A stretch of DNA of 38,329 bases from Firmicutes bacterium CAG:449 (GCA_000432895.1 FR889406.1:51091-89419), one strand, 5' to 3'. Counted from the stretch's first letter, positions 1 through 19,370 are shown. The notes: generated by a model from the sequence alone, not told the origin. Translations and numbers: made by a program.

Positions 1-1026
1 TCGATGATTCATATTTTCTATAATACAATTAATTGCATTTGTTAATTCATTAGCTTCATATAATTCACGTAATTTTCTAAAATGCAAGCCATCTTCAAAG
101 CATTTCAAACTATGTTGAATATTTCCACATATCGCGGTGTCAATATATCTTCTTGTGCTTTCATCATCACGAAAAGATACCTCTTCATCTTTTAATTCAT
201 CATCATCGAAATCAACTTCACCAATACGTAAAGTACCTCCATAACGAATATATTCATCTATTTCATCTATTTTTAAAAGACGAGAATACTCACTAAATGA
301 AATCCAAGTTGTATGAATAAAATAAGTTCTATCATATAATTCATATCTACTTGCAAACCAAATTCCTAATGAGTCAGTTCCAGATATAACAATTTTCATT
401 CCCATGGCAGCATATATATCCGACAAAATAGAAGCAGTATCAATAAAATCTTCCATAAAAGTAATTTCGTCAATAAAAATATATTTATAACCTAATCGTT
501 CTAATTTTTTTAAATCATGATCAAGCATTATCATTGATTGACCTTTTTTTATCTTAATATATACTGCTTTTTTAAAATCATCATCATTCATATCTAAAAT
601 AGCTTGAAATAACATTGTTGTTTTACCAGTTCTACGAAGTCCATATACCGAGCAAATTCTAGGAGTTACCACTCCATACAAATAATCATTAAGAATTTTA
701 TAACAATCCCTTTTATCCAGATCTTTAACATAATGTATAAGTGTTTTTAAAGATTCACCACATATAACATTAGTTTCAAACAAAATATTATTTTTAGAAA
801 TTTGTTTATTTTGCAGTGTTTTTAATTGTTTTTGTAATACTTTTCGCTTTTCAATTTCTAATTTCACTTTTTCATAATCTTCATCAGGAATATATTGGCT
901 TTTTATTTTACCATTATCTGTCCATTGTAAATAATGACGTACTTTACCACCTATAGTTTTGTTAGAAATATAACCTTTTGGTAAAGATTCTATTTTTTCT
1001 TGAAGAGTTTCAATGTCATTTTTCAT
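1..1026 (-). CDS. P-loop AAA+ ATPase (AAA_14/DUF4143-like architecture); C-terminal end lies beyond the window edge
   Basis: Missing from the ORF track only because it has no stop inside the window. My translation of the minus strand from ATG 1026..1024 stays open to base 1 (342 codons): MKNDIETLQEKIESLPKGYISNKTIGGKVRHYLQW... It has a Walker A motif (GLRRTGKTTM) and a Walker B-like motif (YKYIFIDEITFME). SD GAGGGA at 1039..1034. Confidence 0.7.
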   Translation of the reverse strand, partial: MKNDIETLQEKIESLPKGYISNKTIGGKVRHYLQWTDNGKIKSQYIPDEDYEKVKLEIEKRKVLQKQLKTLQNKQISKNNILFETNVICGESLKTLIHYVKDLDKRDCYKILNDYLYGVVTPRICSVYGLRRTGKTTMLFQAILDMNDDDFKKAVYIKIKKGQSMIMLDHDLKKLERLGYKYIFIDEITFMEDFIDTASILSDIYAAMGMKIVISGTDSLGIWFASRYELYDRTYFIHTTWISFSEYSRLLKIDEIDEYIRYGGTLRIGEVDFDDDELKDEEVSFRDDESTRRYIDTAICGNIQHSLKCFEDGLHFRKLRELYEANELTNAINCIIENMNHR

Positions 1027-1050
1027 AGTAAAGTCCCTCACATTTTATAT

Positions 1051-1100
1051 AACCTATTTTAACCTAATTTAACCTATTTATCAATATTAGATTATAGGTT
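1051..1100. repeat. Three tandem 10-bp units AACCTAWTTW (starting at 1051, 1061, 1071) plus one inverted copy TAGGTT (1095..1100)
   Basis: Read directly: aacctatttt aacctaattt aacctattta ... attataggtt. Confidence 0.85.
1056..1084 (-). promoter_or_regulatory. Sigma-A-type promoter of the AAA+ ATPase gene: -35 TTGATA (1084..1079), 17-nt spacer, -10 TAAAAT (1061..1056)
   Basis: The hexamers and spacing were read on the minus strand, about 30 nt upstream of ATG 1026. The AACCTA repeats fill the spacer and flank the -10. Confidence 0.5.
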
Positions 1101-1256
1101 ATAATTAATAAAACTTACACAACTTATTATTTATTTAGTTTTTTTATATTTTATTTAACTAGAAATTAGTTATTTATATATTAAAAAAAGTAAATAAATT
1201 CGATGTACGGTACCTTAAATTATATTTACTTTATTTTTAGCTAATCATATATTGGC

Positions 1257-1286
1257 AAAATAAAAAGGCTAGCGATCTAGCCCTTT
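1257..1286 (-). terminator. Rho-independent terminator closing the signalling operon
   Basis: The stem is GGCTAG (1267..1272) / CTAGCC (1277..1282) with loop CGAT. On the minus strand it is followed by TTTTTATTTT. It lies 160 nt downstream of the kinase stop codon (1446..1444). Confidence 0.6.
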
Positions 1287-1443
1287 ACATTATAAAGTAA
1301 AACTATATGGATAATATCTATTAAAAATAAATCCCCATAAATTCTTAATTTGCTACATATTCCATAATAGTTTTAGCCTTTAAAGACATAAATAATTGTA
1401 TCATATATAATAAATAACTCTAGAAATATGTCTAATTTTGGCA

Positions 1444-1989
1444 CTAATTTGGCACATAACGTCGAAATTTAATTATTATTTTTGTATATTCATTTTCTTT
1501 AGATGATAAGTTAACTTCACCATTATCTAATAAAGAAAATCTCTCTATTAAATTTCTTAAACCTATTGAAGTATTCTTAATATTATTAATATCAAAACCT
1601 TGACCATTATCTTCAATAACGATAGTAATAATTTGATTTTCTTCACTAGTGGATAATCTAATATATCCATTTTGTTTTTTATTAACATTACTATATTTAA
1701 TAGAATTTTCAATAATTGGTTCAATTGATAAAGGTGGAATATAAAAATCATTAACTTTTAAATCATAATCAATAACAAATTTATGTTCTTCTTTTTCATT
1801 CATTAATAAGACATAATCATTAATAATATCTAACTCTTTAGAAAACTCGACTGCTTTTTCTTTGAATATTTCGTTCGATTTACGCATTAAATTATTTAAT
1901 TGTAATAAAGCATTATCACCTTTTTGATGATCTTTCATATACAAAACATCAATCATTGTTAAACTATTAAACAAAAAATGTGGTCGCAT
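1444..1989 (-). CDS. LytS/YehU-type histidine kinase catalytic core (His_kinase H-box plus HATPase_c); probably the 3' part of a frameshifted gene
   Basis: The H-box MRPHFLFNSL sits at the very N-terminus of the ORF. The N-box is IEPIIENSIKYS, G1 is IEDNGQGF and G2 is SIGLRNL. The same frame is open upstream to 2070 (KLNIKQNETIKYNQEILRLKEETLKTQ) without any ATG, GTG or TTG. Confidence 0.85.
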   Translation of the reverse strand: MRPHFLFNSLTMIDVLYMKDHQKGDNALLQLNNLMRKSNEIFKEKAVEFSKELDIINDYVLLMNEKEEHKFVIDYDLKVNDFYIPPLSIEPIIENSIKYSNVNKKQNGYIRLSTSEENQIITIVIEDNGQGFDINNIKNTSIGLRNLIERFSLLDNGEVNLSSKENEYTKIIIKFRRYVPN

Positions 1990-2063
1990 TTGAGTTTTTA
2001 AAGTTTCTTCTTTTAAACGTAAAATTTCTTGATTATATTTAATGGTTTCATTTTGTTTAATAT

Positions 2064-2660
2064 TTAATTTTTATATTCTAAATAAACCACCTTATAAGCA
2101 TTTAAAAATAATAACGCTTCATAAAGAAAATGATAGCCAAATAAACTATACTTACAATCAATAATAGTAAATAAACAATTTAAAAGGTTTAAAAAAGAAA
2201 AAGAAGTAAATTCTTTATTAATAACTAAAATAATAAAATATCCAATAAAATAAATAATTGAAGCAATAAAAGAAGGAATAAAAATATTGATACCACTGAT
2301 GGTTAATAATCCTAAATAGCATAATATATCTTTTTTATGATAATCTTTCTTATTTAAAAATAAAAAGATTGTATAAAATAAATACATGTACTTATTTAAG
2401 AAATCAAAATTAAAATAAATAATTACATTGCTGCCTTCTTTAACACAACTTAAAAATAAAATATTAAAAATTAAAACTAAAACAAATTTAAAATTATTAA
2501 GTTTTAAAACAATATTAACTATGATTAAACCAATAGATGAAAAAAAACAAAATGCAAAAAAGAAAGATCTTGCATTTATAATATAATCAATTGCTCCATT
2601 AACAAAAGATAAACTAAAAAAAGTTAAATAACATATTAAATAAAATATTTTTTTATTCAT
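2064..2660 (-). CDS. Polytopic membrane protein (about 6 TM helices); probably the N-terminal sensor domain of the LytS-type kinase encoded at 1444..2070
   Basis: The 198-aa product is almost entirely hydrophobic helices. Its start overlaps the regulator stop (ATGAATAA). It ends at a TAA immediately after an A5 run (2068..2072), where the kinase frame opens. Confidence 0.7.
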   Translation of the reverse strand: MNKKIFYLICYLTFFSLSFVNGAIDYIINARSFFFAFCFFSSIGLIIVNIVLKLNNFKFVLVLIFNILFLSCVKEGSNVIIYFNFDFLNKYMYLFYTIFLFLNKKDYHKKDILCYLGLLTISGINIFIPSFIASIIYFIGYFIILVINKEFTSFSFLNLLNCLFTIIDCKYSLFGYHFLYEALLFLNAYKVVYLEYKN

Positions 2661-3459
2661 CCACTAAAGCTCTTTTTTTATCTAAAATTTTTTTAAAAAA
2701 TTTATTCCAAGAATACTCTTCTAAAAAATAACCATTATATAAATCATTTTCATTATTTAAATAATCATAATAATCACATTTAATTTTCGTAAAATTAGTA
2801 TTCATTTTAGTAACACCTCTTTGAAAAATTACTAGATGACCAATCCCTTTTTCATTAAGTTTTTGTCTTAATTTATAAATTGAATCACGATATAATCTTT
2901 TTGCTAAATCAAGCTCTCTTTCTGGCCAAAGAATAGAAATAGCTTTTTCCATAGTTAATTTCTTTCCTTTTAAAACCATAATAAGTGCAAGTAGTTCTTC
3001 ACTTTTCTTTGATAAAAAAGTAATCGCTTGACCATCTACTAAGCAATTAAAATCACCAAACATAGAAAATTCAACAATATGTTTATCTATTTCTAAAGCT
3101 AAAAAAGTATTTCTAATAGCCTCATAACTAAAAGGCTTATAAACAAAATCAATTATGTTATCTTTAAATCTTTCTTTGATTTCTTTTTCATCAAAATAAA
3201 AAGCAGTAATAAAAACAATTTTTAAATCTTTATTTTGTTCAATTAATCTAGCCGCTAAATCAAGACCATTAATTTTTGGCATTCTAATATCTAAATATGC
3301 ACAATCTACTGGATAATCTTTTACATACTCAATTGCATCAAGAGGATTATCATTAAAAAATTTATATCTAACATTACTCTCTTCAATAATTTGTGATAAA
3401 AAATGAACTAAAGCTTCCATTTCATCGTCGACAATAATTATCATTAAATCACTATTCAT
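2653..3459 (-). CDS. Response regulator: receiver domain plus winged-helix/SARP-like (COG3947-type) output domain
   Basis: Receiver signatures are IIIVDDE, YLDIRMP (phospho-acceptor Asp) and YKPF. The C-terminal half (LSKKSEELLALIMVLKGKKLTMEKAISILWPE...YRDSIYKLRQKL) fits the OmpR/SARP winged-helix pattern and is followed by a short BTAD-like tail. Confidence 0.85.
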   Translation of the reverse strand: MNSDLMIIIVDDEMEALVHFLSQIIEESNVRYKFFNDNPLDAIEYVKDYPVDCAYLDIRMPKINGLDLAARLIEQNKDLKIVFITAFYFDEKEIKERFKDNIIDFVYKPFSYEAIRNTFLALEIDKHIVEFSMFGDFNCLVDGQAITFLSKKSEELLALIMVLKGKKLTMEKAISILWPERELDLAKRLYRDSIYKLRQKLNEKGIGHLVIFQRGVTKMNTNFTKIKCDYYDYLNNENDLYNGYFLEEYSWNKFFKKILDKKRALVDE

Positions 3460-3465
3460 TAAATA

Positions 3466-5259
3466 CTACTCTCTTTCTAAAAGATAAAACGTTCTATCTT
3501 TTTCTTCAACAATTTTAAATTCCCAATTTAATAGTTTCATTCTCTGACATAAACTATCAATCATTTCAGATTTCTTAATTCTTTTTTTATTCATCGTAAT
3601 GACAAGCTTACCTTCATTAGCTGAAATAAAAACATCCCCATCGTCATTAAGAAAAATCTCATCAATAACTTCATTCATAAAAATTGAAGGAATTTCAAAA
3701 TTTGTTCTATCTACATCAAATATAATATTAATATTTTTATTAAAAAGCAAATTATTAAAATTAACTTTATTCAATAAAATCTTACTTTCTTCATCAAATA
3801 AAGAAAAATAATTATTTAAAGATTTAATTTCATTACGTAATGATGTAGTAAACATATAAGTTGCATTCATACCATCAATATCACTTATTTTATATTGATT
3901 CTTAATTAAATTTAATCCATTATTAATCTCTTTCGTGGATAAAGAATGAATTAACGATTTAGAAAACAAATAGTTAAATTGTTTCTTCAATTCATTATTT
4001 TTAATTGTCTTTCTTCTAATAAAATTAATATTAATCAGATAAACACTCATAAAGATAATCATGGATATTAAAACCAAGCTTTCATAAAAATTTGTCAAAT
4101 CAAAAATCAAAATACCAGTCGAACTAATCATTGAAAAATTCATTAATCCATATAAAGAAGAAACCGCAATTAAGTGAAGAAAATTAATTTTCGACATATC
4201 TTTATAAAATGTTTTTAACATTAAATAAAGAATATCTAGCATTATCAATGTTAAAAATCCATAAGAAATAAACGCATAATAAGTATTATAAGTAAAATGC
4301 AAACTACCTAAAAATAAAGCGCTTAAGATAGTAAAAATGATAATATGTTTTTTATCTTTTTTAATAATATTCTCTTTATCTAAATAAAAATAACAAACAA
4401 TAATACCAACAAAAACGCTAAATGCATTTAAATGTAAATCTAATACACTATCACGATACTTAAAGCCTAATTCTTTTAAATAAAAAGGTGTATCAACACT
4501 AGTAATATAAATTAAAAAGAATGCTAAAACCATATATATTAAATGATGATTCTTTTTGGGCAAAGCTAAAGTAAAAAATGAAAATATTAATATTATTATC
4601 ATTCCCGCTGAAAACATCAAATTAAATTGTTCTAAAAAGATTTCATAAGGATATGGTAAATTCGACGTTAAAGTAAATCCAGGCATCGTTCTAATACCAC
4701 CTATACCACAATTACCAACTTCAATAATAACCTCAATTTCACCACTTTCAGGAACAATATATGGATATGTTTTTCCTTCAAGAGGAACCAATGCACTTTG
4801 TTTTTCTTTACTAGGAGCACCTATTTCATAAGCTAATGTACCATTAAAGAAAATTTTTGATGGCATTCTCATAAAAGAAGAACTAAGTGAAATTCCAGGT
4901 GTTAAATTATAAGTATGAATACGATATGAAGCATAACCATCTCGTGGTAAGATTTTACCATCATATTCTAGACCAGTCCAAAAACTAGGTAAAGTAATAT
5001 AATGAGGCTTTAAATCTTGTTCATTATCAGTTTGAATCCAATGATTATAATAAAATTCAACTTTTCCATGTTGGCCTACATAAATATGCTCATTTTCAAA
5101 TTGATAACCTGCAAAATCAAAATAACCATGGGTATCATTATCAACCATTCCATAAATCTTTGATTCATTAATAGAAAAACCAACCGCCGCAATGCTACCT
5201 AAACAAGAAATTATAAATATAGCAATAATTGAAAGAACAAATTTAACAATACGTTTCAT
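3466..5259 (-). CDS. 7TMR-DISM-type membrane receptor with a degenerate LytS-type kinase-like cytoplasmic tail
   Basis: The protein has an N-terminal signal/TM segment and an ectodomain with a 7TMR-DISMED2-like signature (LPSFWTGLEYDGKILPRDGYASYRIHTYNL). Seven hydrophobic helices follow. The 180-aa tail is paralogous by eye to the kinase core at 1444..1989 but lacks its catalytic motifs. Confidence 0.75.
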   Translation of the reverse strand: MKRIVKFVLSIIAIFIISCLGSIAAVGFSINESKIYGMVDNDTHGYFDFAGYQFENEHIYVGQHGKVEFYYNHWIQTDNEQDLKPHYITLPSFWTGLEYDGKILPRDGYASYRIHTYNLTPGISLSSSFMRMPSKIFFNGTLAYEIGAPSKEKQSALVPLEGKTYPYIVPESGEIEVIIEVGNCGIGGIRTMPGFTLTSNLPYPYEIFLEQFNLMFSAGMIIILIFSFFTLALPKKNHHLIYMVLAFFLIYITSVDTPFYLKELGFKYRDSVLDLHLNAFSVFVGIIVCYFYLDKENIIKKDKKHIIIFTILSALFLGSLHFTYNTYYAFISYGFLTLIMLDILYLMLKTFYKDMSKINFLHLIAVSSLYGLMNFSMISSTGILIFDLTNFYESLVLISMIIFMSVYLININFIRRKTIKNNELKKQFNYLFSKSLIHSLSTKEINNGLNLIKNQYKISDIDGMNATYMFTTSLRNEIKSLNNYFSLFDEESKILLNKVNFNNLLFNKNINIIFDVDRTNFEIPSIFMNEVIDEIFLNDDGDVFISANEGKLVITMNKKRIKKSEMIDSLCQRMKLLNWEFKIVEEKDRTFYLLERE

Positions 5260-5324
5260 AAATTAATATAACATTTAGCAGTTTTATTAAAGTAAAAAAT
5301 AATGTTAAAAAAAACTACTTTCAA
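5256..5324 (-). CDS. Possible 22-codon leader ORF (TTG start) translationally coupled to the receptor gene
   Basis: SD AGGGGA (5338..5333) lies 8 nt before TTG 5324..5322. The peptide is MKVVFFNIIFYFNKTAKCYINL. Its TGA stop (5258..5256) overlaps the receptor ATG (5259..5257) as ATGA. The receptor ATG has no SD of its own. Confidence 0.3.
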   Translation of the reverse strand: MKVVFFNIIFYFNKTAKCYINL

Positions 5325-5350
5325 AATATAAATCCCCTTTTTCACAAAAA

Positions 5351-5380
5351 ATAATACTCTACTTTAATAGAATTTGTCAA
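5351..5380 (-). promoter_or_regulatory. Sigma-A-type promoter of the signalling operon: -35 TTGACA (5380..5375), 18-nt spacer, -10 TATTAT (5356..5351)
   Basis: The hexamers were read on the minus strand, about 90 nt upstream of the receptor start codon. Confidence 0.5.
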
Positions 5381-5439
5381 TATATGAAAATTTATAAATG
5401 AACGTTTATCCATTATTAATGTAAATTTATGTATATAAA

Positions 5440-5461
5440 AACCATAATTTTAATTATGGTT
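5440..5461 (-). terminator. Hairpin terminator after the prepilin-like gene
   Basis: A perfect inverted repeat AACCATAATT / AATTATGGTT lies 4 nt after the stop codon (5468..5466). On the minus strand it is followed by TTTATAT, which is only a short T-run. Confidence 0.45.
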
Positions 5462-5465
5462 ATGA

Positions 5466-7586
5466 TTAATTATCAAAAGTTGAACAATTATCTAATGTCA
5501 GTTCACCTTTATAATGAACAATAAATTTAAATTCATCAATTTTTCTTTTTTCGTGAACTTCACAATTATTAAAATATCCTTTACCTTTATAATTTACTTC
5601 TATTGCAGTATTTCCTTTAATATAAGTTGAATATCCACTTATTTTTGTGTCATTATCAATATAAATTGCTCTATCACTTACATTTATATTCAAGTCGTGT
5701 ATATATACGTTTTTACTATTTTTATTTTTAATTCCATTTTTGCCATTAATTACGCAATTATATAAATTTGTTTCACCTTTATTAACTTCAACAGCTAAGT
5801 CTTTAGAAGAAACAGTCGATTCTTTTATAGTTAATGATCCATTATCATTTACAATAGGATTTTTTCCAGTAATATTAGATTTTATAACATTAATTGTTCC
5901 TGATAATAAATCTATTGCTTTACTGCATACAATACGATCATCTGAACCAATATGTGAATCTTCAATGTTAATCGTAGATTTAGTATTTTTTATTGCATAG
6001 TGAGCAACAATATTAGATTTTTTAATTGTAACATTAGCCCCATCTTCTGTTTCAATAGAAGTACTTGTAAATTCTTTATGTATAACATTTACATTATCAA
6101 GAACTAATTTTGCCTTTTTACAATAAATTAAAGTACTTACTGCATTAGTTTTATCATTTCCCACACCAACAATTGATCCATTCATAAAAGTAATTGTGTT
6201 ATTCTCCCCACTACAATTAAAAAATGATTTTCCAGCTAAGCTTCGATACATTTCAATTGTATGTCCATTCAAATTAATAACTTTATTAGTGTTAATATCT
6301 ATTTCATTAACAGATTCACTAAAATCAATATCATCATTTAACTTAACATACTCTTTATCTTTTAATAAACTTTCAAACTCTTTTGAATCAATCGTTTTAT
6401 TAGGTGTATTATCAAAATCTTTCCAATCTTTATTGACTAATTCATTTTGACAATCAACACAAACACCATTTTCATTATAATGATGATCACTAATAGGTAA
6501 AACTTCTTGTTCAACTAAAACTTTTCCACATTCAGCACAAATTTTTCCTTCAGTTAAACCAGTTTTTAAACAAGTTGGTTCTATTCTAGGAAGAAGTTTT
6601 TCAATATGTTCATGAATAGGAATAATTAATTCTTTTTGTTGTCTAGTAAAAGCAATATTTTCAAAATTAGCTTCCACTATTTTTTCTCCACTTTCATCAC
6701 AAGTTGCTTCAACATATTTTAAAATATTTATTTTTCCTTCTTCAATTTGATCTTCAACCTTTTTATTTAAATCTTTTCTAATTGCAACGCATGTTGAATA
6801 TGTTTCATCCCAAGTATAAATAGGTTCACTCCAAATAATACATTTTGAAACATCACCATTTAAATTTGAAGATGGAATTTCTGAGCCTTCTTCACCAATA
6901 AAATGACCTTGATCAAGTTTAATACTAGATAGAACTTTCCCATGTTCAATATAAGTATGATCACTAATTGCATGAATGTTTAAATCAGTTAAATAACCAT
7001 AATGAGAAATCGTATCATATAATCCATCTATATATAAACTAGTAATGTATTCTTCACTAGTAAGAATAAGAACATCTTCTTTTTGGCTATTATTAATATA
7101 ATTAATTTGTTTAATTTTATTATTTCCAACATCTAATCCCGATTTAATATTTACTTCTTCATATTCATTAGCACCTTTTAAATAAATAGAAAAATCAGTA
7201 TCTTCTATATTATCTAAAAATTTCCAATAATAAAAATTACTTGGTGCAGTATCACCAAAAACTACCTCATCATTTTCTAATAAAACAAAATTATTATATT
7301 TTTGATTCCAAGCAATTTGACTATCTTCATTAGAGGTAATTAAATCACTCAAAGAATAACCATTATTTTTTAAAACATTTAAAGCATCTTCTGGTGTTCT
7401 AACTTTTTTATTTATTTCTTCAGTTTTTAATAATAAGTTAAGTTGTGAAACAAAACTAATATCATTACTTGCTTTAGCTTTTTTAGTAAAATTAATATAA
7501 CTTGTCGTGGTAACTGTAGCAAGCACTCCTAAAATAGCAATTACAACTAACAATTCGACTAATGTAAATCCTTTTTTCTTTTTCAT
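5466..7586 (-). CDS. Prepilin-type N-terminal cleavage/methylation-domain protein with a large Cys-motif and beta-helix-like C-terminal region
   Basis: The N-terminus MKKKKGFTLVELLVVIAILGVLATV is a canonical type IV pilin/pseudopilin signal, with G-1, F+1 and E+5. The middle carries (A/P)TCxxxG...CxxCG...H motifs (ATCDESGEK..., PTCLKTGLTEGKICAECGKVL..., CVDCQ). The C-terminal ~300 aa contains many short N/I/V/G-rich repeats (NVTIKKSNIV, TINIEDSHIG, TINVIKSNITG, LTIKESTVS) typical of a right-handed beta-helix. I prefer ATG 7586 over the track GTG at 7595. Confidence 0.8.
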   Translation of the reverse strand: MKKKKGFTLVELLVVIAILGVLATVTTTSYINFTKKAKASNDISFVSQLNLLLKTEEINKKVRTPEDALNVLKNNGYSLSDLITSNEDSQIAWNQKYNNFVLLENDEVVFGDTAPSNFYYWKFLDNIEDTDFSIYLKGANEYEEVNIKSGLDVGNNKIKQINYINNSQKEDVLILTSEEYITSLYIDGLYDTISHYGYLTDLNIHAISDHTYIEHGKVLSSIKLDQGHFIGEEGSEIPSSNLNGDVSKCIIWSEPIYTWDETYSTCVAIRKDLNKKVEDQIEEGKINILKYVEATCDESGEKIVEANFENIAFTRQQKELIIPIHEHIEKLLPRIEPTCLKTGLTEGKICAECGKVLVEQEVLPISDHHYNENGVCVDCQNELVNKDWKDFDNTPNKTIDSKEFESLLKDKEYVKLNDDIDFSESVNEIDINTNKVINLNGHTIEMYRSLAGKSFFNCSGENNTITFMNGSIVGVGNDKTNAVSTLIYCKKAKLVLDNVNVIHKEFTSTSIETEDGANVTIKKSNIVAHYAIKNTKSTINIEDSHIGSDDRIVCSKAIDLLSGTINVIKSNITGKNPIVNDNGSLTIKESTVSSKDLAVEVNKGETNLYNCVINGKNGIKNKNSKNVYIHDLNINVSDRAIYIDNDTKISGYSTYIKGNTAIEVNYKGKGYFNNCEVHEKRKIDEFKFIVHYKGELTLDNCSTFDN

Positions 7587-7606
7587 AATAATCACTTTTC
7601 GGGTTA

Positions 7607-7635
7607 ATTATACAAATATCAATATATTAATGCAA
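7607..7635 (-). promoter_or_regulatory. Sigma-A-type promoter of the prepilin-like gene: -35 TTGCAT (7635..7630), 17-nt spacer, -10 TATAAT (7612..7607)
   Basis: The near-consensus hexamers and spacing were read on the minus strand. The implied leader is under 20 nt and has a weak SD. Confidence 0.55.
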
Positions 7636-7705
7636 TTTTTTATTGTTGATTAAAATCTTTTTCTATTTCTAAAATATAAAAATTTAAATAAAATCGCTTA
7701 CAAAA

Positions 7706-7742
7706 TTAACAATTATTTAAACATTGTTAATATTTCAACAAC
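7706..7742. promoter_or_regulatory. Operator-like palindromes upstream of the ABC operon: TTAACAAT-N9-ATTGTTAA (7706..7730) and ATTGTTAA-TATT-TCAACAAC (7723..7742)
   Basis: Read directly. The 16-mer TGTTAATATTTCAACA (7725..7740) is the exact reverse complement of 18092..18107, which lies in the TetR-family divergent promoter region. Confidence 0.45.
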
Positions 7743-7809
7743 GATAATATTTATGTACTTAAATCATACATTTTTCATAATATAATTTCCATTTGAAAGG
7801 AGCAAAAAA

Positions 7810-8742
7810 ATGCACGTTATTGAAGTAAGTAACTTAACAAAAGATTATGGATCAGGTCGTGGAGTATTTGATGTCAGCATTCATGTTGATAAAGGTGAAG
7901 TATTTGGTTTCTTAGGACCAAATGGTGCAGGTAAATCCACGACAATTAGACACTTAATGGGTTTTTCTAAACCTGATAAAGGAAGTGCAAAAATTTTAGA
8001 GCAAGAAACATTTTCTAAATATTATGAAATATTAAATCATGTTGGCTATATTCCTGGTGAAATTGCTTTACCAGCAGGATTAACTGGTTATGAATTTTTG
8101 AAAATGATGCAAGATTTACAAAATATCCATAATCAAGAATATTTAAATTATTTATTAAAACTATTTGAATTAGAAGATAATGTTTTAAGTGGTGAAACAA
8201 AAAGAATGAGTTTAGGAGTCAAAAGAAAGTTAGCAATCGTCGCAGCTTTTATGTCAGATCCTGATGTATTAATTCTTGATGAACCAACAAGTGGTCTTGA
8301 TCCAGTTATGCAAGAAACATTTATTGAATTTATTCATCAAGAAAAGAAAAGAGGAAAAACGATTTTATTATCAAGTCATATCTTTTCAGAAATCGATTCA
8401 ACATGTGATAGAATTGCCATAATTAAAGATGGTCATATCGTTTCCGAATTTGTAGCTAACGATTTAAAACATGCCTCAAGAAAATACTATACTGTTGATT
8501 TTAAAGACTCAAAAAATAAAGATAAATTTTTAAAAAAGGAAAAAGAATTATCTTCATTTATACTTCTTAAAGAAGAAAATGAAAGTGTTTATATCTCTAT
8601 TGAAGATAGAGATTTAAATCACTTAATAGAAATATTATCTGATTTGGAAGTTAGTTTATTTAGCAATCGCAAAGAATCATTAGAAGATTACTTTATGAAA
8701 TTCTATAAAGAAGATAAAGACTTCAAAGGAGCGTTAAAATGA
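7810..8742 (+). CDS. ABC transporter ATP-binding protein (ABC-2/BcrA-like subfamily), copy 1
   Basis: Motifs are Walker A GPNGAGKST, signature-like MSLGVKRKL, Walker B LILDEPTSGLD and H-loop SSH. SD AAAGGAG at 7796..7802. Confidence 0.92.
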   Translation: MHVIEVSNLTKDYGSGRGVFDVSIHVDKGEVFGFLGPNGAGKSTTIRHLMGFSKPDKGSAKILEQETFSKYYEILNHVGYIPGEIALPAGLTGYEFLKMMQDLQNIHNQEYLNYLLKLFELEDNVLSGETKRMSLGVKRKLAIVAAFMSDPDVLILDEPTSGLDPVMQETFIEFIHQEKKRGKTILLSSHIFSEIDSTCDRIAIIKDGHIVSEFVANDLKHASRKYYTVDFKDSKNKDKFLKKEKELSSFILLKEENESVYISIEDRDLNHLIEILSDLEVSLFSNRKESLEDYFMKFYKEDKDFKGALK

Positions 8743-9650
8743 GCGTAATAGAAATTAAAGATTTAACTAAAGATTATGGTGATAATCGTGGAGTTTTCGA
8801 TATTAATTTAAATATTGAAAAAGGTGAAATGGTTGGTTTTGTTGGAACAAACGGAAGTGGAAAAACCACCACAATTAGAAATATTTTAGGCTTCATTAAA
8901 CCAACAAAAGGAACATGTAAAGTAAATAATTTAACTTCTTGGGAACACTCTAGTGAAATTGTAAAAGATATTGGTTATGTGCCTGGAGAAATTGCTTTTC
9001 CTGATTTACCTACAGGAATTGACTTTTTAAAAACACAAGCTGAATTCTATCATCTAGATAATATGGATTACGCTAATGAATTAATTGAAAGATTGCAATT
9101 AGATCCAAGAGCAAATTTAAAAAGAATGTCAAAAGGTATGAAACAAAAAACTGCTTTAGTCGCAGCATTAATGAACGATTCACCAATTATAATTCTCGAT
9201 GAACCAACTACTGGTCTAGATCCATTAATGAGAGCTACTTTCCTTGATATTATCAAAGAAGAACATGCTAAAGGTAAAACCATTTTTATGAGTAGTCATA
9301 GTTTTGATGAATTAGAAGCTACTTGTGATAAAGTTGCTTTAATTAATGATGGACATATTATTGATGTTTGTGATATGAACGATATAAGAAATCGCCCAAT
9401 CAAAGATTTCAAAATTGAATTTAACAATAAAGAAGATTTTGAAAAATTCTTAAAAGATAACTATACAATCACTAGAATTCAAGAACAATACAATCAAGTC
9501 ACAATTGAAATCAAAGCTAATGAAACAATAAATTTATTAAAAACATTAAAAAACTATGATGTAAAGTTTATTTCTGAATTACCTTACACTCTAGAAAAAC
9601 ATTTCAAACAAATATTATTTAAGAAAAAAGGAGAAAGTAAAAATGTTTAG
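8739..9650 (+). CDS. ABC transporter ATP-binding protein, copy 2 (paralogue of the preceding gene)
   Basis: Motifs are Walker A GTNGSGKTT, signature-like MSKGMKQKT, Walker B ILDEPTTGLD and H-loop SSH. An ATGA start/stop overlap links it to copy 1. Confidence 0.92.
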   Translation: MSVIEIKDLTKDYGDNRGVFDINLNIEKGEMVGFVGTNGSGKTTTIRNILGFIKPTKGTCKVNNLTSWEHSSEIVKDIGYVPGEIAFPDLPTGIDFLKTQAEFYHLDNMDYANELIERLQLDPRANLKRMSKGMKQKTALVAALMNDSPIIILDEPTTGLDPLMRATFLDIIKEEHAKGKTIFMSSHSFDELEATCDKVALINDGHIIDVCDMNDIRNRPIKDFKIEFNNKEDFEKFLKDNYTITRIQEQYNQVTIEIKANETINLLKTLKNYDVKFISELPYTLEKHFKQILFKKKGESKNV

Positions 9651-11457
9651 TAAAGCTTTATTTAAACAATCATGCAAAGCAAACGGAACAATGTGGACAA
9701 TTATTACTTTTGCAGTTTGCTTTATGCTTGCATGTGTTATGTTAATCAGTGGTAATGGAAATATTGGTGATGTTAAAAATGCCATTGAAGATACAATTAT
9801 CACAAAAGAAATCGATGCTCAATTAGAAAAAAGAGCAATAAATTATTATAGTAATGCTGATGATGGATTAAATCAATTTGATTACTACTTTACTTTAAAT
9901 GCAACTGATGACTTATCTTATTTAGTTTATTTAAACGCTAAACCAGATCAAAAGAACTATTCATCAACTGTAGACTATCAACAAGCATTATTAATTTGGA
10001 GTCAAAGTGCTCCTGAAATGAAAACCACTGAAGGTAAAAACTATGTTAATTCAATTAATACTTGGTTAAATAGTATGCCTCAACAAGATCAATATACTTC
10101 AGCTCAAGATTATTTAGAAGCTATCAAAAAATGGAAAGAAGAAACTCCTTCTTCCCAAGAAAAAGCTATTGCTTCAAGTTATATTGCCGCGATTAATGAA
10201 TTACAAGAATATATTTATAATAAAGCTCTTGAAATTAATTCTACTTATACAAAAGACTCCTTAGAAACTCAAGAAATGTTAGGATCAGTAATGTATTCAT
10301 TAAATCCAAATGGAATGTTTAATGAATTCTATTCTTCTCATAATGAAGATATCCCTGAAGATTATGATATTATGTCAATCATTGCTCATCTACAAACAAA
10401 TGACGCTTTAGATTATATAAAAAGCGAAGAAAGAGTTTCATATCGTTCAACAAGAAGTGAAAATGGTGCTAGTGTTTTCTTATCAGGTAATATGACTGAA
10501 GAAGAAAATGTTAACAAAATTATTGATGAATTATCCTCTTTTGGTGTTACAAAAGAAAAGTATGATAGCTTTGGATATACTTATACAAATATCAAACACT
10601 TATCAAAAACTGCAATTATTACTTATAAAAATAGATTATCTTATGAATTAGATTTACTTAAAGATAAATATAATAATGGCGAATTTACTTCTCAAGAAGA
10701 ATATCAACAAGCAATTATCGATAAAACAAATGAATTATCTAGTGAAGTTGCAAGTTCATTATTAGCTTCTTTACCTGAAAAAGTTTCTGAAGCTTTAGAA
10801 GATATTGGAAAAGCTGATTTATATACTTTAATCGTTGGTTCTATTTTCTATAAACTTGCTGGATTATTATTACCTATCATCTTTATGATTATGGTCTCTA
10901 ATAACCTTATTTCTGGTCAAGTCGATAGTGGATCAATGGCGTATGTTTTATCAACATCCACTAAAAGAAAAACTGTTAGTTTCACACAAGCAGTTTACTT
11001 AATTGGTTCATTATTAACAATGTTCATCTTAACTACTATTACTGGTAGTGTTTGCTTAGCAATTGTTGGTGATAAAGTAAGTCTTACATATGGAAAATTC
11101 ATTTTGCTTAATGTAGGTGCGTTCTTAGTCTTATTCTGCTTATCTGGACTTTGTTTCTTCACTTCATGCTATTTTGATAGAAGTAAACGTTCTATGGCAA
11201 TCGGTGGAGGTTTATCAATATTTGCTTTAGTTGCTGCCATGTTAGGATTATTTGGTAGTCAAGCAATTCCATCTGTAGTAAGATTAGATTCATTAAATTA
11301 CTTCAACTATGTAACAATTATTTCCTTATTTGATGTTATTTCTATTATTAATAATTCAACAACATTTATTTATAAATTTGCTATTCTCTTTGTACTAGGA
11401 GTAATTGGTTATATTGCTGGGTCAATAAAATTTAGAAAAAAAGATTTACCTTTATAA
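9643..11457 (+). CDS. ABC-2-type permease with one N-terminal TM helix, a ~380-aa extracytoplasmic domain and a C-terminal 5-TM bundle
   Basis: Its start overlaps the stop of ATPase 2. The hydrophobicity pattern fits this topology. The NLISGQVDSGSMAYVLSTSTKRKT motif sits after the first helix of the C-terminal bundle, as is usual in ABC-2 permeases. Confidence 0.75.
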   Translation: MFSKALFKQSCKANGTMWTIITFAVCFMLACVMLISGNGNIGDVKNAIEDTIITKEIDAQLEKRAINYYSNADDGLNQFDYYFTLNATDDLSYLVYLNAKPDQKNYSSTVDYQQALLIWSQSAPEMKTTEGKNYVNSINTWLNSMPQQDQYTSAQDYLEAIKKWKEETPSSQEKAIASSYIAAINELQEYIYNKALEINSTYTKDSLETQEMLGSVMYSLNPNGMFNEFYSSHNEDIPEDYDIMSIIAHLQTNDALDYIKSEERVSYRSTRSENGASVFLSGNMTEEENVNKIIDELSSFGVTKEKYDSFGYTYTNIKHLSKTAIITYKNRLSYELDLLKDKYNNGEFTSQEEYQQAIIDKTNELSSEVASSLLASLPEKVSEALEDIGKADLYTLIVGSIFYKLAGLLLPIIFMIMVSNNLISGQVDSGSMAYVLSTSTKRKTVSFTQAVYLIGSLLTMFILTTITGSVCLAIVGDKVSLTYGKFILLNVGAFLVLFCLSGLCFFTSCYFDRSKRSMAIGGGLSIFALVAAMLGLFGSQAIPSVVRLDSLNYFNYVTIISLFDVISIINNSTTFIYKFAILFVLGVIGYIAGSIKFRKKDLPL

Positions 11458-11467
11458 AAATCAATTG

Positions 11468-11497
11468 GGCTATGGAGTCATCCATAGTCTTTTTTTT
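11468..11497 (+). terminator. Rho-independent terminator of the ABC operon
   Basis: The stem is GGCTATGGA / TCCATAGTC with loop GTCA, followed by T8 (11490..11497). Confidence 0.8.
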
Positions 11498-11562
11498 ATA
11501 ACTATTAAATATTATTTAATATTTTCCTTTTTCGTTGTATAATCTTATCAGGTGAAAAAAAG

Positions 11563-13266
11563 ATGTCATACAAAGCGTTATATAGAACATATCGTCCAAT
11601 GACTTTTGATGAAGTCGCAGGACAAAAACATATTATTCAAACATTAAAAAATGCATTAAAAGAAAACAAAATTGCTCATGCTTATCTTTTCTGCGGTCCT
11701 CGTGGAACAGGCAAAACAACCATGGCAAGAATTTTTGCAAAAGCTTTAAATTGTGAAAAAGGATTTGGTGAGCAATGTAATGAATGCGAAAATTGCCGAG
11801 CAATAATTGAAGGTAGACACCCAGATGTTATTGAAATTGATGCTGCAAGTAATCGTGGTATTGATGATATTAGGGATTTAGTCTCTAAAGTCAAATATGC
11901 TCCTATTTTAGGTCAATATAAAGTTTATATTATCGATGAAGTTCATATGATGACTAATGAAGCGTTCAACGCTTTATTAAAAACTTTAGAAGAACCACCA
12001 GAAAAAACAGTTTTTATTTTAGCTACTACTGAACCATATAAATTAATGCCAACTATTTTATCTAGATGTCAAAGATATGATTTTACTAAAGTTAGTGATG
12101 GTGATATTTATAATCGTTTATTTGATATTTTACAAAACGAGCATATTCAAATGGATGATGACGCTCTTTCTAGTTTAGTTAAACTTGCTGATGGTGGAGT
12201 TAGAGATGCTTTATCAATGTTAGATCAAGTTATTGCTTATCAAGGAAATAATATTACTTTAAAAACAATCGAAGAATTGTATGGTTTATCTTCAAAAGAA
12301 GAAAAAATCAATTTATTAGTTGCTTGCGACAAAAAAGATATTTCTACTTTAACCTCTACTATTCAAACCTTTGCTGAAAATGGTATTGATATTAAACGTT
12401 TAACTTTAGACTTATTAGATATCTTAAAAGATTTATTGATTTATCAAACTACTAAAGATGAAAGTTTATTAAAATTTATTTCTATTAGTGATGTTGATTC
12501 ATTACCTTTACCAGTTAAAAAAATTAATTATTGGATTGATACTTTATTACAAGCTAATTCTCAATTTAAAATGGTCAACAATGTTTTATCTTTATTTGAA
12601 ATCACTCTTTTAAAACTTGCTTCTTATGAAGAAGAGAAAAAAGAAGAAGTTAAAGTTATTGAGAAAGTTGTGGAAGTTAAAAAGCCTACAATTATCCAAG
12701 AAGAGAAAAAAGAGGAAATTAAAACCGAAGAAATAAAAGAAGAAGTTTTACCTTTAACATTTACTAATGTTTCCTTTAGTTCAGTCAACACTTTTGTTGA
12801 AGAAGGAACACCAATTAATTACACTCTTGATGATATTGTAAATATTATGGTTCAAGCTACAAAAGAAGAAAAGACCAAAATTGTTAATAATTGGAAATTA
12901 CTCGATAAATTATTAACTCATCCTAAAGTTGGAAAATATGCCTCTACATTGAAAATGACAACTCCTAGAATTGTTTGTAAATCAGCCGTAGTTTTTGATT
13001 CAAACTTTAAAAGTAATGTCACAAAAATTAATTTAAAAGAAAATCAATATGGTTTTTCTAAAGTAGTCGAAGCTTTATATGGAGAAAATTGTATTGTTTT
13101 ATGTATGAGTCAACAAGATTATATTGAAGCAGTTAAAAAATTTACTAACTTACAACAAGCTAATAAATTGCCTTCAGCTAGAGAAATAACTATTGATGTA
13201 AAAATAAATTCTACACCACAAAAAACCCAAACTGAATTACTCGCAGAAGAATTAAAAGGAGAATAA
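11563..13266 (+). CDS. dnaX: DNA polymerase III subunit tau (gamma/tau)
   Basis: The N-terminus is YRTYRPMTFDEVAGQKHI. Walker A is GPRGTGKTT, the zinc module is CNECENC, and DEVHM and the SRC sensor motif are present. The -10 TATAAT is at 11538..11543 and SD AGGTGA at 11550..11555. Confidence 0.95.
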   Translation: MSYKALYRTYRPMTFDEVAGQKHIIQTLKNALKENKIAHAYLFCGPRGTGKTTMARIFAKALNCEKGFGEQCNECENCRAIIEGRHPDVIEIDAASNRGIDDIRDLVSKVKYAPILGQYKVYIIDEVHMMTNEAFNALLKTLEEPPEKTVFILATTEPYKLMPTILSRCQRYDFTKVSDGDIYNRLFDILQNEHIQMDDDALSSLVKLADGGVRDALSMLDQVIAYQGNNITLKTIEELYGLSSKEEKINLLVACDKKDISTLTSTIQTFAENGIDIKRLTLDLLDILKDLLIYQTTKDESLLKFISISDVDSLPLPVKKINYWIDTLLQANSQFKMVNNVLSLFEITLLKLASYEEEKKEEVKVIEKVVEVKKPTIIQEEKKEEIKTEEIKEEVLPLTFTNVSFSSVNTFVEEGTPINYTLDDIVNIMVQATKEEKTKIVNNWKLLDKLLTHPKVGKYASTLKMTTPRIVCKSAVVFDSNFKSNVTKINLKENQYGFSKVVEALYGENCIVLCMSQQDYIEAVKKFTNLQQANKLPSAREITIDVKINSTPQKTQTELLAEELKGE

Positions 13267-13270
13267 AACT

Positions 13271-13573
13271 ATGAATATGCAAGCATTAATGCAACAAGCA
13301 CAAAAAATGCAAAAAGAAATGCAAAAAAAACAACAAGAATTAGAAAATACTACTTTTGAAGTTTCTAGTGCAGGTGGAGCAATAAAAATTAAAATTAAAG
13401 GATCCCGTCAAATTGAACAAATAGAGATTGATAAAGACGCTATTGATCCAGAAGAAAAAGAAATGCTCGAAGATATGATTAAAGTAGCAATGAATGAAGC
13501 TAATAAGCTTGTTGATGAAGCATTTGAACAATTAAATAGCAGTATGACAAATGGCTTAAGGATGCCTTTTTAA
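13271..13573 (+). CDS. ybaB: YbaB/EbfC family nucleoid-associated protein
   Basis: The 100-aa product begins NMQALMQQAQKMQKEMQKKQQEL and contains SSAGGAIKIKIKG. It occupies the conserved position between dnaX and recR. Confidence 0.9.
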   Translation: MNMQALMQQAQKMQKEMQKKQQELENTTFEVSSAGGAIKIKIKGSRQIEQIEIDKDAIDPEEKEMLEDMIKVAMNEANKLVDEAFEQLNSSMTNGLRMPF

Positions 13574-14178
13574 TGAAAGAATTACAAACGATTGCTAATT
13601 TAACCAATGCCTTAAAAGTAATACCAGGAATTGGAAATAAATCAGCAGAAAGAATTGCTTATGAATTTATTAAAATGAATCCAGAAAAAGTTGATTCATT
13701 AATTAATAGTATTCAAGCCATTAAAAAAGATTTGTCGATTTGTCCAATATGCGGATCTTATATGGAAAATAACAAATGTCAAATTTGTTTAGATTCCACT
13801 AGAGATGATTCTCTTCTTGTAGTAGTCACCTCTTATAAAGATGTTATCGCCTTAGAAAGATTATCTTCTTTACATGCTTTTTATCATGTTTTAAATGGAA
13901 GTATTTCACCAAGTAAAGGTATTACCGCTAGTGATATTAATATTAATAAATTAATTCAAAGAATTAAAAATAATCATTTTAAAGAAATTATTTTAGCTAC
14001 TGACCCGACAATTGATGGAGAAACAACCGCTTTATATATTTCAGAAATATTAAAAGATATTTCTGATTTAATTATTTCTCGTTTAGGATATGGTTTGCCA
14101 ATGGGAGCTAATTTAGATTTCGCCGACGAACTTACTCTTTCTCATGCTTTAAAAGGAAGAACAATTTACAAAAAATAG
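13573..14178 (+). CDS. recR: Recombination protein RecR
   Basis: It has LPGIGNKSAERIAY (HhH), the zinc finger CPICGSYMENNKCQIC and a Toprim region ending in ATDPTIDGETTALY. Confidence 0.95.
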   Translation: MKELQTIANLTNALKVIPGIGNKSAERIAYEFIKMNPEKVDSLINSIQAIKKDLSICPICGSYMENNKCQICLDSTRDDSLLVVVTSYKDVIALERLSSLHAFYHVLNGSISPSKGITASDININKLIQRIKNNHFKEIILATDPTIDGETTALYISEILKDISDLIISRLGYGLPMGANLDFADELTLSHALKGRTIYKK

Positions 14179-14188
14179 GAGTTTTACT

Positions 14189-14812
14189 ATGTCAAATTTT
14201 ATTACTTTAGAAGGTCCTGAAGGATCTGGAAAGTCATCAGTAATGGAAGTAGTCTATTCTAGATTAATTTTAGAAGGCTATGAAATTATCAAAACACGTG
14301 AACCAGGTGGCACTGAAATTGGTGAACAAATACGTAATGTTATTTTAAATAATCAAAATGTTAATATGGACATTCGTGCAGAAGCTTTATTATTTGCCGC
14401 TAGTAGAAGACAACATTTAGTAGAAAAAATTTGGCCTAGTTTAAAAGAAAATAAACTTGTTTTTTGTGATCGCTACCTTGATTCATCTTTATCTTATCAA
14501 GGATATGCTCGAGGTTTAGGAATTGATGAAGTTTTAAAAATTAATTTATTTGCTACTGAAAATACCTTTCCAACTTTAACTCTTTTATTTGATGTTGATC
14601 CAGAAATTGGCTTAAATAGAATTAAAAATAATGCTTCTAGAGAAGTAAATCGTTTAGATAAAGAAAAATTAGAATTTCATAAAAAAGTTAGAGAAGGTTA
14701 TCTTATTCTACAAAAAAGATTTCCTGAAAGAATTAAAATTATTGATGCAAGTCAACCATTTGAACAAGTAGTCGAACAAGCATATAAAGTAATTAAGGAA
14801 AATTTACAATGA
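14189..14812 (+). CDS. tmk: dTMP (thymidylate) kinase
   Basis: Motifs are FITLEGPEGSGKSS (P-loop), TREPGGT and DRYLDSSLSYQG. Confidence 0.95.
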   Translation: MSNFITLEGPEGSGKSSVMEVVYSRLILEGYEIIKTREPGGTEIGEQIRNVILNNQNVNMDIRAEALLFAASRRQHLVEKIWPSLKENKLVFCDRYLDSSLSYQGYARGLGIDEVLKINLFATENTFPTLTLLFDVDPEIGLNRIKNNASREVNRLDKEKLEFHKKVREGYLILQKRFPERIKIIDASQPFEQVVEQAYKVIKENLQ

Positions 14813-15792
14813 GTTTTAAAGAATATTTAAAGAATAATCAAAGAATCGTTTATAACACATTTGCTTCTTCTATTAAAGCAAATCGTCTTTCACATGCATA
14901 TTTAATTAAAGGCAATGAAGGCGCCCCCTTACTTGAAACCGCCTTATTCTTAGCTAAATCTTTAATTTGTCCACATGCTGATCCTTTAGCGTGTGAAGAA
15001 TGTCTAACTTGCATTCGTTTTGATGAAGGAAATTATGCCGATTTTAAATTACTTAACGGGCAAGAAAAAAATATTAAAGTTTCTGATATTGAAGAATTAC
15101 AAGCTTTCTTTCAAAATACTCCAAGTGAAAAATCAAAAAAGATGATTTACATTATTCATGCTTTAGAAAACTCAAACAAAGAAAGTCTTAATGCATTATT
15201 AAAATTTTTAGAAGAACCACAAGAAAATGTATATGCTTTTATTACTACATATAATGAAGAAAAACTTTTACCAACCATTTTATCTAGAACACAACACTTA
15301 AAATTATTACCTCTAAAAAAAGGTGAATTAATTCAAAAAGTTGAAAATGAAGGAATAAGTAAAGATGATGCTGAAATTCTCTCTAACCTTTATGGAAATG
15401 TCGAAACCATTGTTAGTATTGGTTCATCGAAAACATATATTGAAATTAAAAATTTAGTATTTGATACTCTAGATGCTTTACAAAAAGATACTAAAGAGGC
15501 CCTTTTCTTTTTAGAAAATAATGCATTAAATAAATTAAAGGATAAAGTTAACGCTAGATTATATTTAGATATTCTATCTTGCGCATTTAAAGATATCTTA
15601 AATATTCAATTAAATTTACCTATTATAATTGAAAGTCAAAAATATTTATTTGATTCTTTAGCAAAGAAATTAAAAAATGTTGATTCTATTTATAAAGAGA
15701 TTATGCTAACTAGAGGAAAAATAGAATTAAATGTCAATATTGCTCTTTTATTAGAGCATATATTTATTTACATATACGAAGGAGAAAAATAA
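14809..15792 (+). CDS. holB: DNA polymerase III subunit delta prime
   Basis: It has LSHAYLIKG, a Cys cluster (CPHADPLACEECLTC) and ILSRTQ. It occupies the conserved position after tmk, with an ATGA overlap. Confidence 0.85.
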   Translation: MSFKEYLKNNQRIVYNTFASSIKANRLSHAYLIKGNEGAPLLETALFLAKSLICPHADPLACEECLTCIRFDEGNYADFKLLNGQEKNIKVSDIEELQAFFQNTPSEKSKKMIYIIHALENSNKESLNALLKFLEEPQENVYAFITTYNEEKLLPTILSRTQHLKLLPLKKGELIQKVENEGISKDDAEILSNLYGNVETIVSIGSSKTYIEIKNLVFDTLDALQKDTKEALFFLENNALNKLKDKVNARLYLDILSCAFKDILNIQLNLPIIIESQKYLFDSLAKKLKNVDSIYKEIMLTRGKIELNVNIALLLEHIFIYIYEGEK

Positions 15793-15793
15793 T

Positions 15794-18068: not shown

Positions 18069-18088
18069 TATTTGTACATCCTTTTAAA

Positions 18089-18110
18089 CAATGTTGAAAT
18101 ATTAACATTG
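18089..18110. promoter_or_regulatory. Palindromic operator candidate CAATGTT-GAAATATT-AACATTG in the TetR-family divergent promoter region
   Basis: The 7-bp perfect arms were read directly. The site lies between the divergent starts at 18068 (-) and 18172 (+). Confidence 0.5.
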
Positions 18111-18171
18111 ATATTTTCATTGTAATGTAATTTATGGTAAAATACAATCATAATGATTAAGGGAGAATTTT

Positions 18172-18627: not shown

Positions 18628-18634
18628 TAAACTT

Positions 18635-19342: not shown

Positions 19343-19369
19343 ACTGTGAAAAAACTTCACAGTTTTTTT
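19343..19369 (+). terminator. Rho-independent terminator (+ strand)
   Basis: The stem is ACTGTGAA / TTCACAGT with loop AAAAC, followed by T6. Confidence 0.8.
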
Positions 19370-19370
19370 A

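Follow-up and report, generated by a model that had tools for sequence, protein, structure and literature searches.

A seven-transmembrane receptor with a degenerate histidine kinase core is encoded beside a related LytS/YesM-type kinase in Firmicutes bacterium CAG:449

The stretch of DNA analyzed in this work (the window) comprises 38,329 nucleotides of Firmicutes bacterium CAG:449 (GCA_000432895.1 FR889406.1:51091-89419) and includes, in a region of approximately 22% GC, three tightly packed co-directional genes on the minus strand that encode, in this order, a membrane receptor, a response regulator (RR) and a sensor kinase (Table 1). The first-pass annotation of this locus described it as a signalling operon in which the receptor carries a dead kinase core and acts together with a live kinase of the same kind. 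The regulator gene and the 5' fragment of the kinase gene overlap by 8 nt, and in the 3' fragment of the latter the first ATG is found at position 1989 (MRPHF...), from which 181 residues that correspond to the kinase core are encoded (1444..1989). The three genes are flanked by one promoter-like site (5380..5351) and one terminator-like site (1286..1263), in agreement with the promoter and the terminator previously proposed at 5351..5380 and 1257..1286, respectively. The first of these sites is a consensus match only, in an AT-rich region whose total of such sites is not above that of shuffled sequences; two terminator-like sites were found where 0.4 were expected.

Table 1. Positions, counted from the first letter of the window, of the features of the receptor/regulator/kinase locus
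Feature	Position	Strand	Remarks
Promoter-like site, TTGACA-18-TATTAT	5351..5380	minus	11/12 matches; top site within 1000..5600; 5' of the receptor gene
Receptor pseudokinase gene, 597 aa	3466..5259	minus	Intact in the window; exact sequence on at least 15 contigs
Ectodomain, residues ~31-200, beta-sandwich	4660..5169	minus	AF2 strands at 46-197
Seven-TM domain, residues ~203-415	4015..4653	minus	Homologue of the 7TMR-DISM_7TM (Pfam) region in P0297 and P0298
Degenerate DHp-like hairpin and lid-less CA-like alpha/beta domain	3469..4014	minus	AF2, HMM, hhalign
Response regulator gene, 268 aa	2653..3459	minus	Begins 6 nt past the receptor stop codon
Partner kinase gene, 5' fragment, 198 aa, multi-TM, without ectodomain	2064..2660	minus	Ends at a premature TAA
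Frameshift site	2066..2067	minus	TT in the window, TTT in the 99.3%-identical L003 (1-nt deletion)
Partner kinase gene, 3' fragment	1444..2070	minus	Frame open from 2070
Terminator-like hairpin followed by a T-run	1263..1286	minus	10-bp stem; 3' of the kinase gene

The receptor consists of an N-terminal anchor, a beta-rich ectodomain, seven transmembrane (TM) helices and a cytoplasmic tail of about 180 residues, as represented in a model generated with AlphaFold2 (AF2; predicted local distance difference test, pLDDT, 88.2; predicted template modelling score, pTM, 0.76). In this model a long helix continues TM7 as far as residue 458, another helix follows at 460-481, and residues 485-596 form an alpha/beta domain; the pLDDT values of the tail are 80-90. 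No usable match to the receptor was obtained from Pfam and NCBIfam (from Pfam, none at all), and BLASTP of the receptor against the partner kinase with its frame repaired gave nothing significant (best E = 0.63, a match between TM segments); therefore, the likeness of the tail to the kinase is visible only by profiles or structure. A hidden Markov model (HMM) of the core built from 39 catalytically intact relatives scores the tail of the window receptor with 42 bits (E = 6e-13), and the comparison by hhalign of the receptor clade with the small-kinase clade equates receptor residues 434-582 with kinase residues 219-378 (Prob 95.3%, E = 2.3e-8). The Foldseek matches of the tail include structures with the dimerization and histidine phosphotransfer (DHp) and catalytic and ATP-binding (CA) domains, i.e. 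DesK, AgrC, AdeS and SrrB, as well as ChpT, an ATP-free protein with the histidine kinase (HK) fold (E = 4e-5 to 5e-4 for DesK, AgrC, AdeS and ChpT). These three comparisons bear out the homology between the tail and the kinase core that had been read by eye, and they indicate that the tail is a genuine, degenerate PF06580/HATPase_c core, in other words, a pseudokinase.

As had also been claimed, every catalytic signature is missing from this core. The H-box, which in the partner kinase and the family reads PHFLFNSL, corresponds to TKEINNGL in the receptor (residues 442-449), so that K443 is placed at the phospho-acceptor histidine, aligned with H228 of the kinase, and E444 at the following position (H+1); the residue equivalent to this histidine is D or N in the relatives with 60% identity and is variable in other degenerate members. 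The E-N of the N-box is replaced by D533-E534, with E534 at the position of the asparagine, the G1 motif (DNGxGFD) reads MNKKRI, and G2 and the lid, both present in the partner kinase and the family, are absent, the lid being deleted. From the three blocks of alignment originally drawn between the tail and the kinase, the second (IPSIFMNEVIDEIF / IPPLSIEPIIENS) and the third (GDVFISANEGKLVITMNKKRI / GYIRLSTSEENQIITIVIEDNGQGF) were reproduced by hhalign; the first was out of register, with LKKQFNYLFSKSL sitting 14 residues upstream of the true H-box match, although the conclusion drawn from it, that the histidine is lacking, stands.

The sensor module has been spared from this degeneration. The HMM of the ectodomain gives 209 bits for the window receptor and 210-225 for the catalytically intact members of its family, and that of the 7TM domain 136 and 131-169, respectively, whereas with the HMM of the core the window receptor reaches 41 bits and the intact members 266-287; by these scores, degeneration is confined to the core. 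The AF2 model shows the seven TM helices that had been predicted, at residues 203-232, 238-263, 271-295, 303-323, 329-354, 357-381 and from 391 onwards, up to about 415. The Pfam models for 7TMR-DISM had zero matches to the receptor or to any of 62 relatives. A family profile that covers the ectodomain and the 7TM domain finds proteins annotated with 7TMR-DISM_7TM (PF07695; E = 1e-17 and 7e-14), which carry SpoIIE or GGDEF outputs, and hhalign to 7TMR-DISM proteins gave Prob 98.7% over 345 columns of ectodomain and 7TM, spanning the PF07695 region and, in P0297, its ectodomain too; because of these matches, the sensor module looks like a remote member of the 7TMR-DISM class that falls outside the current Pfam model. 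Accordingly, the description of the protein as a 7TMR-DISM receptor may be retained for its 7TM module, but not the DISMED2-like nature given to its ectodomain: 7TMR-DISMED2 (PF07696) had no match in the receptor, in the 62 relatives, or in P0297 and P0298, which have the same ectodomain, and the ectodomain of RetS, a receptor considered below, is absent from the top 50 Foldseek matches of the receptor. The fold of the ectodomain matches the sandwiches of sugar-binding type of a beta-glucuronidase of glycoside hydrolase family 2 (GH2) and a GH3 beta-glucosidase (Foldseek E of about 5e-4), which hints at a carbohydrate as its ligand.

The partner kinase is a small protein without an extracytoplasmic domain. 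Once its frame is repaired, it matches His_kinase (PF06580, E = 2.9e-13) and HATPase_c (E = 2.8e-5), and the motifs of its core are intact: QMRPHFLFNSL, with H228, IEPIIENSIKY, with N319, EDNGQGFD (G1) and TSIGLKNL (G2). In the AF2 model of an intact orthologue the CA domain has pLDDT values of 85-94, and 7-8 helices of low confidence (pLDDT of about 50) occupy residues 3-195, a membrane part too unreliable to be weighed against the six TM helices given in the first-pass annotation. The core of this kinase obtains 205 bits with the HMM of the receptor-family core, while generic PF06580 kinases of YesM, LytS and TPR type obtain 68-143 bits, and its best non-orthologous matches carry the ectodomain of the family. 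As it is nearer to the receptor family than the generic kinases are, the term paralogue, which the first-pass annotation had applied to it, is justified in a broad sense for the core, which by these comparisons belongs to the same PF06580 subfamily as the receptor tail.

The same annotation considered the kinase as live, and this holds for the motifs, given that the H, N, G1 and G2 determinants are kept, but not for the gene as it stands in the window, whose frame is split by a 1-nt deletion; the segment LKTQMRPHF... was read across this break without remark. The operon of the window and that of L003 differ by 29 substitutions and two 1-nt indels, and in L003 the kinase is intact (405 aa), because it has TTT instead of TT. 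A programmed frameshift or a phase-variable tract at this site is unlikely, since the tract is short (T2/T3 after A5) and the intact allele prevails in the population.

Frameshifted alleles of the receptor gene were observed as well. At L003:7973 (about position 4713 of the window) the receptor gene is broken by one additional A, with products of 189 and 406 aa, while the kinase is intact. This defect is the opposite of that in the window: which gene of the operon is inactivated differs between strains of a single species. Alleles of this kind also circulate, with products of 189, 280 and 406 aa, the last on 4 contigs. In a sister species with 60% amino acid identity (L015, positions 5180-5260, and L016), the receptor is frameshifted within a run of eight C, ATTACCCCCCCCATTA, where its relatives have CTTCACCAAA; two samples, each covered 30-45x, show the same frameshifted sequence without any difference. 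Such a poly-C run, in a genome of about 25% GC, is a candidate tract for phase variation by slipped-strand mispairing.

The regulator matches Response_reg (E = 3.9e-18) and is formed by a receiver domain (REC), a winged helix with a weak likeness to those of OmpR and of the Streptomyces antibiotic regulatory proteins (SARP), and a C-terminal extension of about 40 aa. The acceptor aspartate is kept, as previously noted: D57 is present along with D11, D12 and K108, and these residues are invariant in the family alignment. The winged helix was recognized by Trans_reg_C with E = 0.003 (matches of 17.9-21.9 bits, which fall short of the gathering score) and by weak matches to the PDB profiles of KdpE (0.021), EmbR (0.038) and AfsR (0.1). 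The bacterial transcriptional activation domain (BTAD, PF03704) had no match at E<=1 in any of six regulator orthologues, and there is no room for it, because only about 40 aa extend beyond the winged helix-turn-helix (wHTH). Hence, in the REC-wHTH-BTAD, SARP-type regulator proposed earlier, REC and wHTH are sustained, BTAD is not, and the SARP affinity amounts to a weak tendency among the top matches. Along its full length, the window regulator is 36-41% identical to the regulators of intact receptor kinases; one regulator family serves both the pseudokinase and the intact-receptor systems.

An exhaustive HMMER search with a small family of receptors retrieved 384 relatives, mostly of 590-650 aa, as full-length matches; a scan of genome contigs yielded a single relative, L004, fragmented and at low coverage, from UMGS1395, the metagenome-assembled genome of an uncultured Mollicutes of the human gut, which is the nearest genome record. 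His_kinase (PF06580) is matched by 49 of the 62 aligned relatives and HATPase_c by 41, and approximately 23 of about 100 full-length representatives of the family are degenerate. The strongly degenerate ones (n = 14) are only 20-25% identical to the window receptor, and 12 of them have Glu at H+1; in a milder class, the histidine is changed to N, D or E and a DHRxxY motif is found instead of G1. No member of the family is named in any source.

The gene neighbourhood separates the two kinds of receptors. Six degenerate lineages (the window clade, L005/L019, L006/L020, L007, L008 and L021-24) were compared with four intact receptor kinases (L009/10, L011, L012 and L028), and the receptor gene adjoins that of an intact PF06580 kinase in 6/6 of the former and 0/4 of the latter (Fisher p = 0.0048). 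The order is kinase, receptor in L005, L019 and L008, and receptor, kinase in L007 and in L006 and L020, these last two with the RR gene on the opposite strand; in L021-24 (L021:2959-7435) a full-size receptor kinase with a divergent ectodomain is followed by the degenerate receptor and the RR. The intact receptor kinases are followed only by a regulator of 259-269 aa of the same regulator family. Among the ten lineages examined the pattern is clean, and the genomic linkage of the dead receptor to a sensor-less live paralogue is obligatory. The conservation expected earlier for a quartet of genes was found for the receptor/RR/kinase trio, which is kept in another species (60%/69%/49% identity) with different neighbours and is also present in L013 and L014, but not for the fourth gene, that of a pilin-like protein. 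In L021-L024, the partner of the degenerate receptor, which is of the mild class, is the full-size receptor kinase and not a small kinase, i.e. live and dead receptors are in tandem.

From these results, we consider it probable that the locus is a three-gene module derived from an ordinary two-component system, in which a pseudokinase receptor controls a partner kinase. The ancestor would have been a receptor kinase, with an ectodomain and 7TM domain of 7TMR-DISM type fused to a PF06580 core of LytS/YesM type, together with a REC-wHTH regulator. The large receptor would have kept its sensor module and the DHp/CA fold while it lost the phospho-acceptor histidine and the entire ATP-binding site, for which reason it could not autophosphorylate, and catalysis would come from another member of this subfamily, a small multi-TM kinase without an ectodomain. 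The receptor would sense an extracellular ligand, probably a carbohydrate, and as the input device of the module it may control the partner kinase through direct contact, in a DHp heterodimer or in a hetero-oligomer that involves TM and DHp segments, which is a reasonable conjecture along the lines of the heterodimerisation or allosteric control suggested in the first-pass annotation; the kinase would in turn phosphorylate D57 of the regulator and alter transcription. In the window strain the phosphorylation arm is probably inactive, because the kinase gene carries the 1-nt deletion; in most conspecific assemblies all three genes are intact.

The broken kinase frame could be an artefact of sequencing or assembly, in which case the window would truly encode an ordinary intact trio. 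Several contigs with the split allele have low coverage (cov 1.6-2.0), and short homopolymers, A5 and then T2/T3, surround the indel. However, exactly the same products of 198 and 181 aa are encoded on 6-8 contigs that stem from several assemblers and independent samples (ERZ1308063, GCA_900522415.1 and ERZ501746, among others), the longest of 128 kb, with the receptor and the regulator intact on them, and random errors would not recur at a single site; this explanation is therefore improbable. The intact 405-aa kinase is far commoner (dozens of contigs, most conspecific assemblies), and the kinase of the window is a circulating loss-of-function allele, neither the norm of the species nor a random assembly error. 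It could also be argued that the operon is decaying, the tail being the relic of an inactivated kinase, the frameshifts a further step of gene loss, and the arrangement devoid of a special function. The host, one of the gut Mollicutes with a reduced genome of 25% GC, and the independent frameshifts in the kinase of the window lineage, the receptor of the L003 lineage and that of the sister species would fit this idea. Nonetheless, the ratio of nonsynonymous to synonymous changes (dN/dS) of the tail between alleles of sister species is 0.06 (3N/10S) and 0.15 (32.5N/37.5S), similar to that of the live kinase core (0.07); the dead tail is under purifying selection. The degenerate state is also common to lineages that are 20-25% identical, each with its own conserved motifs, intact trios are the majority allele (dozens of contigs), and the tail is well folded in the AF2 model (pLDDT 80-90). 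Pure decay is disfavoured by the selection data, and we regard it as very improbable.

The main rival to control of the kinase is that the pseudokinase acts on the regulator, in the manner of DivL or ChpT: its DHp-like hairpin would dock REC in order to sequester it, to scaffold it, to sense its phosphorylated form (RR~P) as DivL does, or to dephosphorylate it, and the small kinase would respond to a membrane signal of its own. The residues L449, I452, Y456, G463, F470 and R475 of the hairpin are nearly invariant in both intact and degenerate members, a Glu stands beside the lost histidine in 12/14 degenerate members, the top structural TM-score corresponds to ChpT (4qpk, TMt 0.56), an HK-fold protein that binds only receivers, and the window clade has its RR gene between those of the receptor and the kinase. 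In contrast, the Asn at H+4, the candidate residue for phosphatase activity, is found in the window clade, whereas the other degenerate members have S, D or A there; the strict linkage is to the second kinase, while the RR accompanies the intact receptors too; and the fully conserved ectodomain argues for the receptor as an input device. On balance, action on the regulator seems unlikely to us.

Control of the partner kinase by the receptor, the reading that we prefer, has several observations to contend with. No homology was detected between the 7TM domain of the receptor and the membrane part of the small kinase, hence a pairing at the TM level is not indicated by sequence. Frameshift alleles circulate in the kinase (window) and in the receptor (the L003 lineage and L015/L016), and thus the module is dispensable, at least in some hosts. 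The carbohydrate ligand has no base beyond the resemblance of folds (Foldseek E of about 5e-4), and the sample of genomic contexts is small (10 lineages), with some of the flanks being short contigs.

The genes around the operon were also inspected. Directly upstream, a 709-aa protein (5466..7595, minus strand) bears a prepilin-type N-terminal methylation motif (N_methyl, E = 1e-9), followed in the description by a body that is large, beta-rich and contains Cys; it is kept in the relatives with 99% identity and absent at the locus of the 60% relative. The prepilin-type protein that had been placed next to the operon is therefore found there in the window, but it is not a conserved partner. Divergent from this pilin-like gene, two overlapping tandem genes for ATP-binding cassette (ABC) ATPases of 310 and 303 aa are located at 7810..9650 (plus strand), and in a relative this pair is followed by an ABC2-type membrane protein. 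In L003 (13541-16233), past the left end of the window, genes for galactokinase and galactose-1-P uridylyltransferase are found two genes downstream of the kinase; they could relate to sugar sensing, but are not conserved in L002. No tRNA genes and no Rfam families at the gathering threshold were detected in the whole 38-kb window (1..38329).

The closest precedent for the mechanism is RetS of Pseudomonas aeruginosa, which acts on the DHp of GacS (PMC8498467; PMC4866733): there, as proposed here, a 7TMR-DISM receptor with an HK-fold part controls a competent kinase through DHp contact. RetS differs in that it has a functional core of the HisKA family, receiver domains and a DISMED2 ectodomain, and it is not encoded with GacS, whereas in the window system the core is of PF06580 type and fully degenerate, the ectodomain is other than DISMED2, and the operon itself encodes the partner, a paralogue. 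In Caulobacter, DivL is an HK homologue without the phospho-acceptor histidine that has kept the DHp/CA fold and regulates the kinase CckA (PMC4211667; PMC5361649). Unlike the receptor, DivL is cytoplasmic, PAS-based and of HisKA type, its His is changed to Tyr with the CA domain largely intact, it reads a phosphorylated RR (DivK~P), and its gene is not in an operon with that of its partner. The canonical members of the receptor family (P0100/L009, P0113/L011, P0117/L012 and P0107/L028) are direct evolutionary relatives that share the ectodomain, the 7TM domain, the DHp/CA fold and a family of REC-wHTH regulators of 260-270 aa, but their H, N, G1 and G2 are retained and no other kinase is encoded next to them. 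In XylFII-LytS/YesN, a three-component system by which Clostridia sense xylose, and in accessory-sensor systems of intramembrane-sensing kinases such as BceAB-BceS, a LytS-type or minimal membrane kinase without an ectodomain of its own takes its input from a distinct protein of the membrane or periplasm; in them, however, the accessory sensor is a binding protein or an ABC transporter and not a degenerate paralogue of the kinase. The structure of BceAB-S (8g3a) is among the Foldseek matches of the receptor. Finally, subfamily-2 ethylene receptors of plants are dead-HK paralogues that form complexes with HK-competent paralogues (PMC4730734), but they are eukaryotic, with another sensor and another output. 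In the literature we found histidine pseudokinases (DivL, PsmA, RcsD, the ethylene receptors) and RetS/GacS, and no case in which a paralogous kinase is encoded together with a pseudokinase of LytS/YesM or 7TMR-DISM type; the pairing of a dead receptor with a live kinase is conserved in the relatives and apparently undescribed.

A broader proposal, possible although rather doubtful at present, is that these loci represent a widespread and unrecognized class of three-component systems. An obligate 7TM pseudokinase, with a conserved Glu next to the lost histidine, would be the sole input and would drive a sensor-less, paralogous LytS/YesM-type kinase through a DHp heterodimer, as a genetically hard-wired, operon-encoded counterpart of RetS-GacS; the class would have arisen more than once in one family, and recurrent frameshifts, those at the poly-C tract of the sister species among them, would turn it off in natural gut populations.

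Automatic annotation misses the whole receptor family, with zero Pfam matches on the window receptor and no names among its members. Cross-regulation between kinases and histidine pseudokinases are known from a few well-studied cases, such as RetS/GacS and DivL/CckA, whose partners are encoded at unlinked loci. In the present system, by contrast, a pseudokinase and the kinase presumed to be its client are side-by-side paralogues that recur across lineages 20-25% identical, and close relatives with the ancestral arrangement of a single active kinase are available for comparison. Together they offer a natural series to study how a sensor kinase may come to be divided between a pseudokinase that senses and a transmitter that catalyses, which surfaces couple them, and how frequently this occurs.

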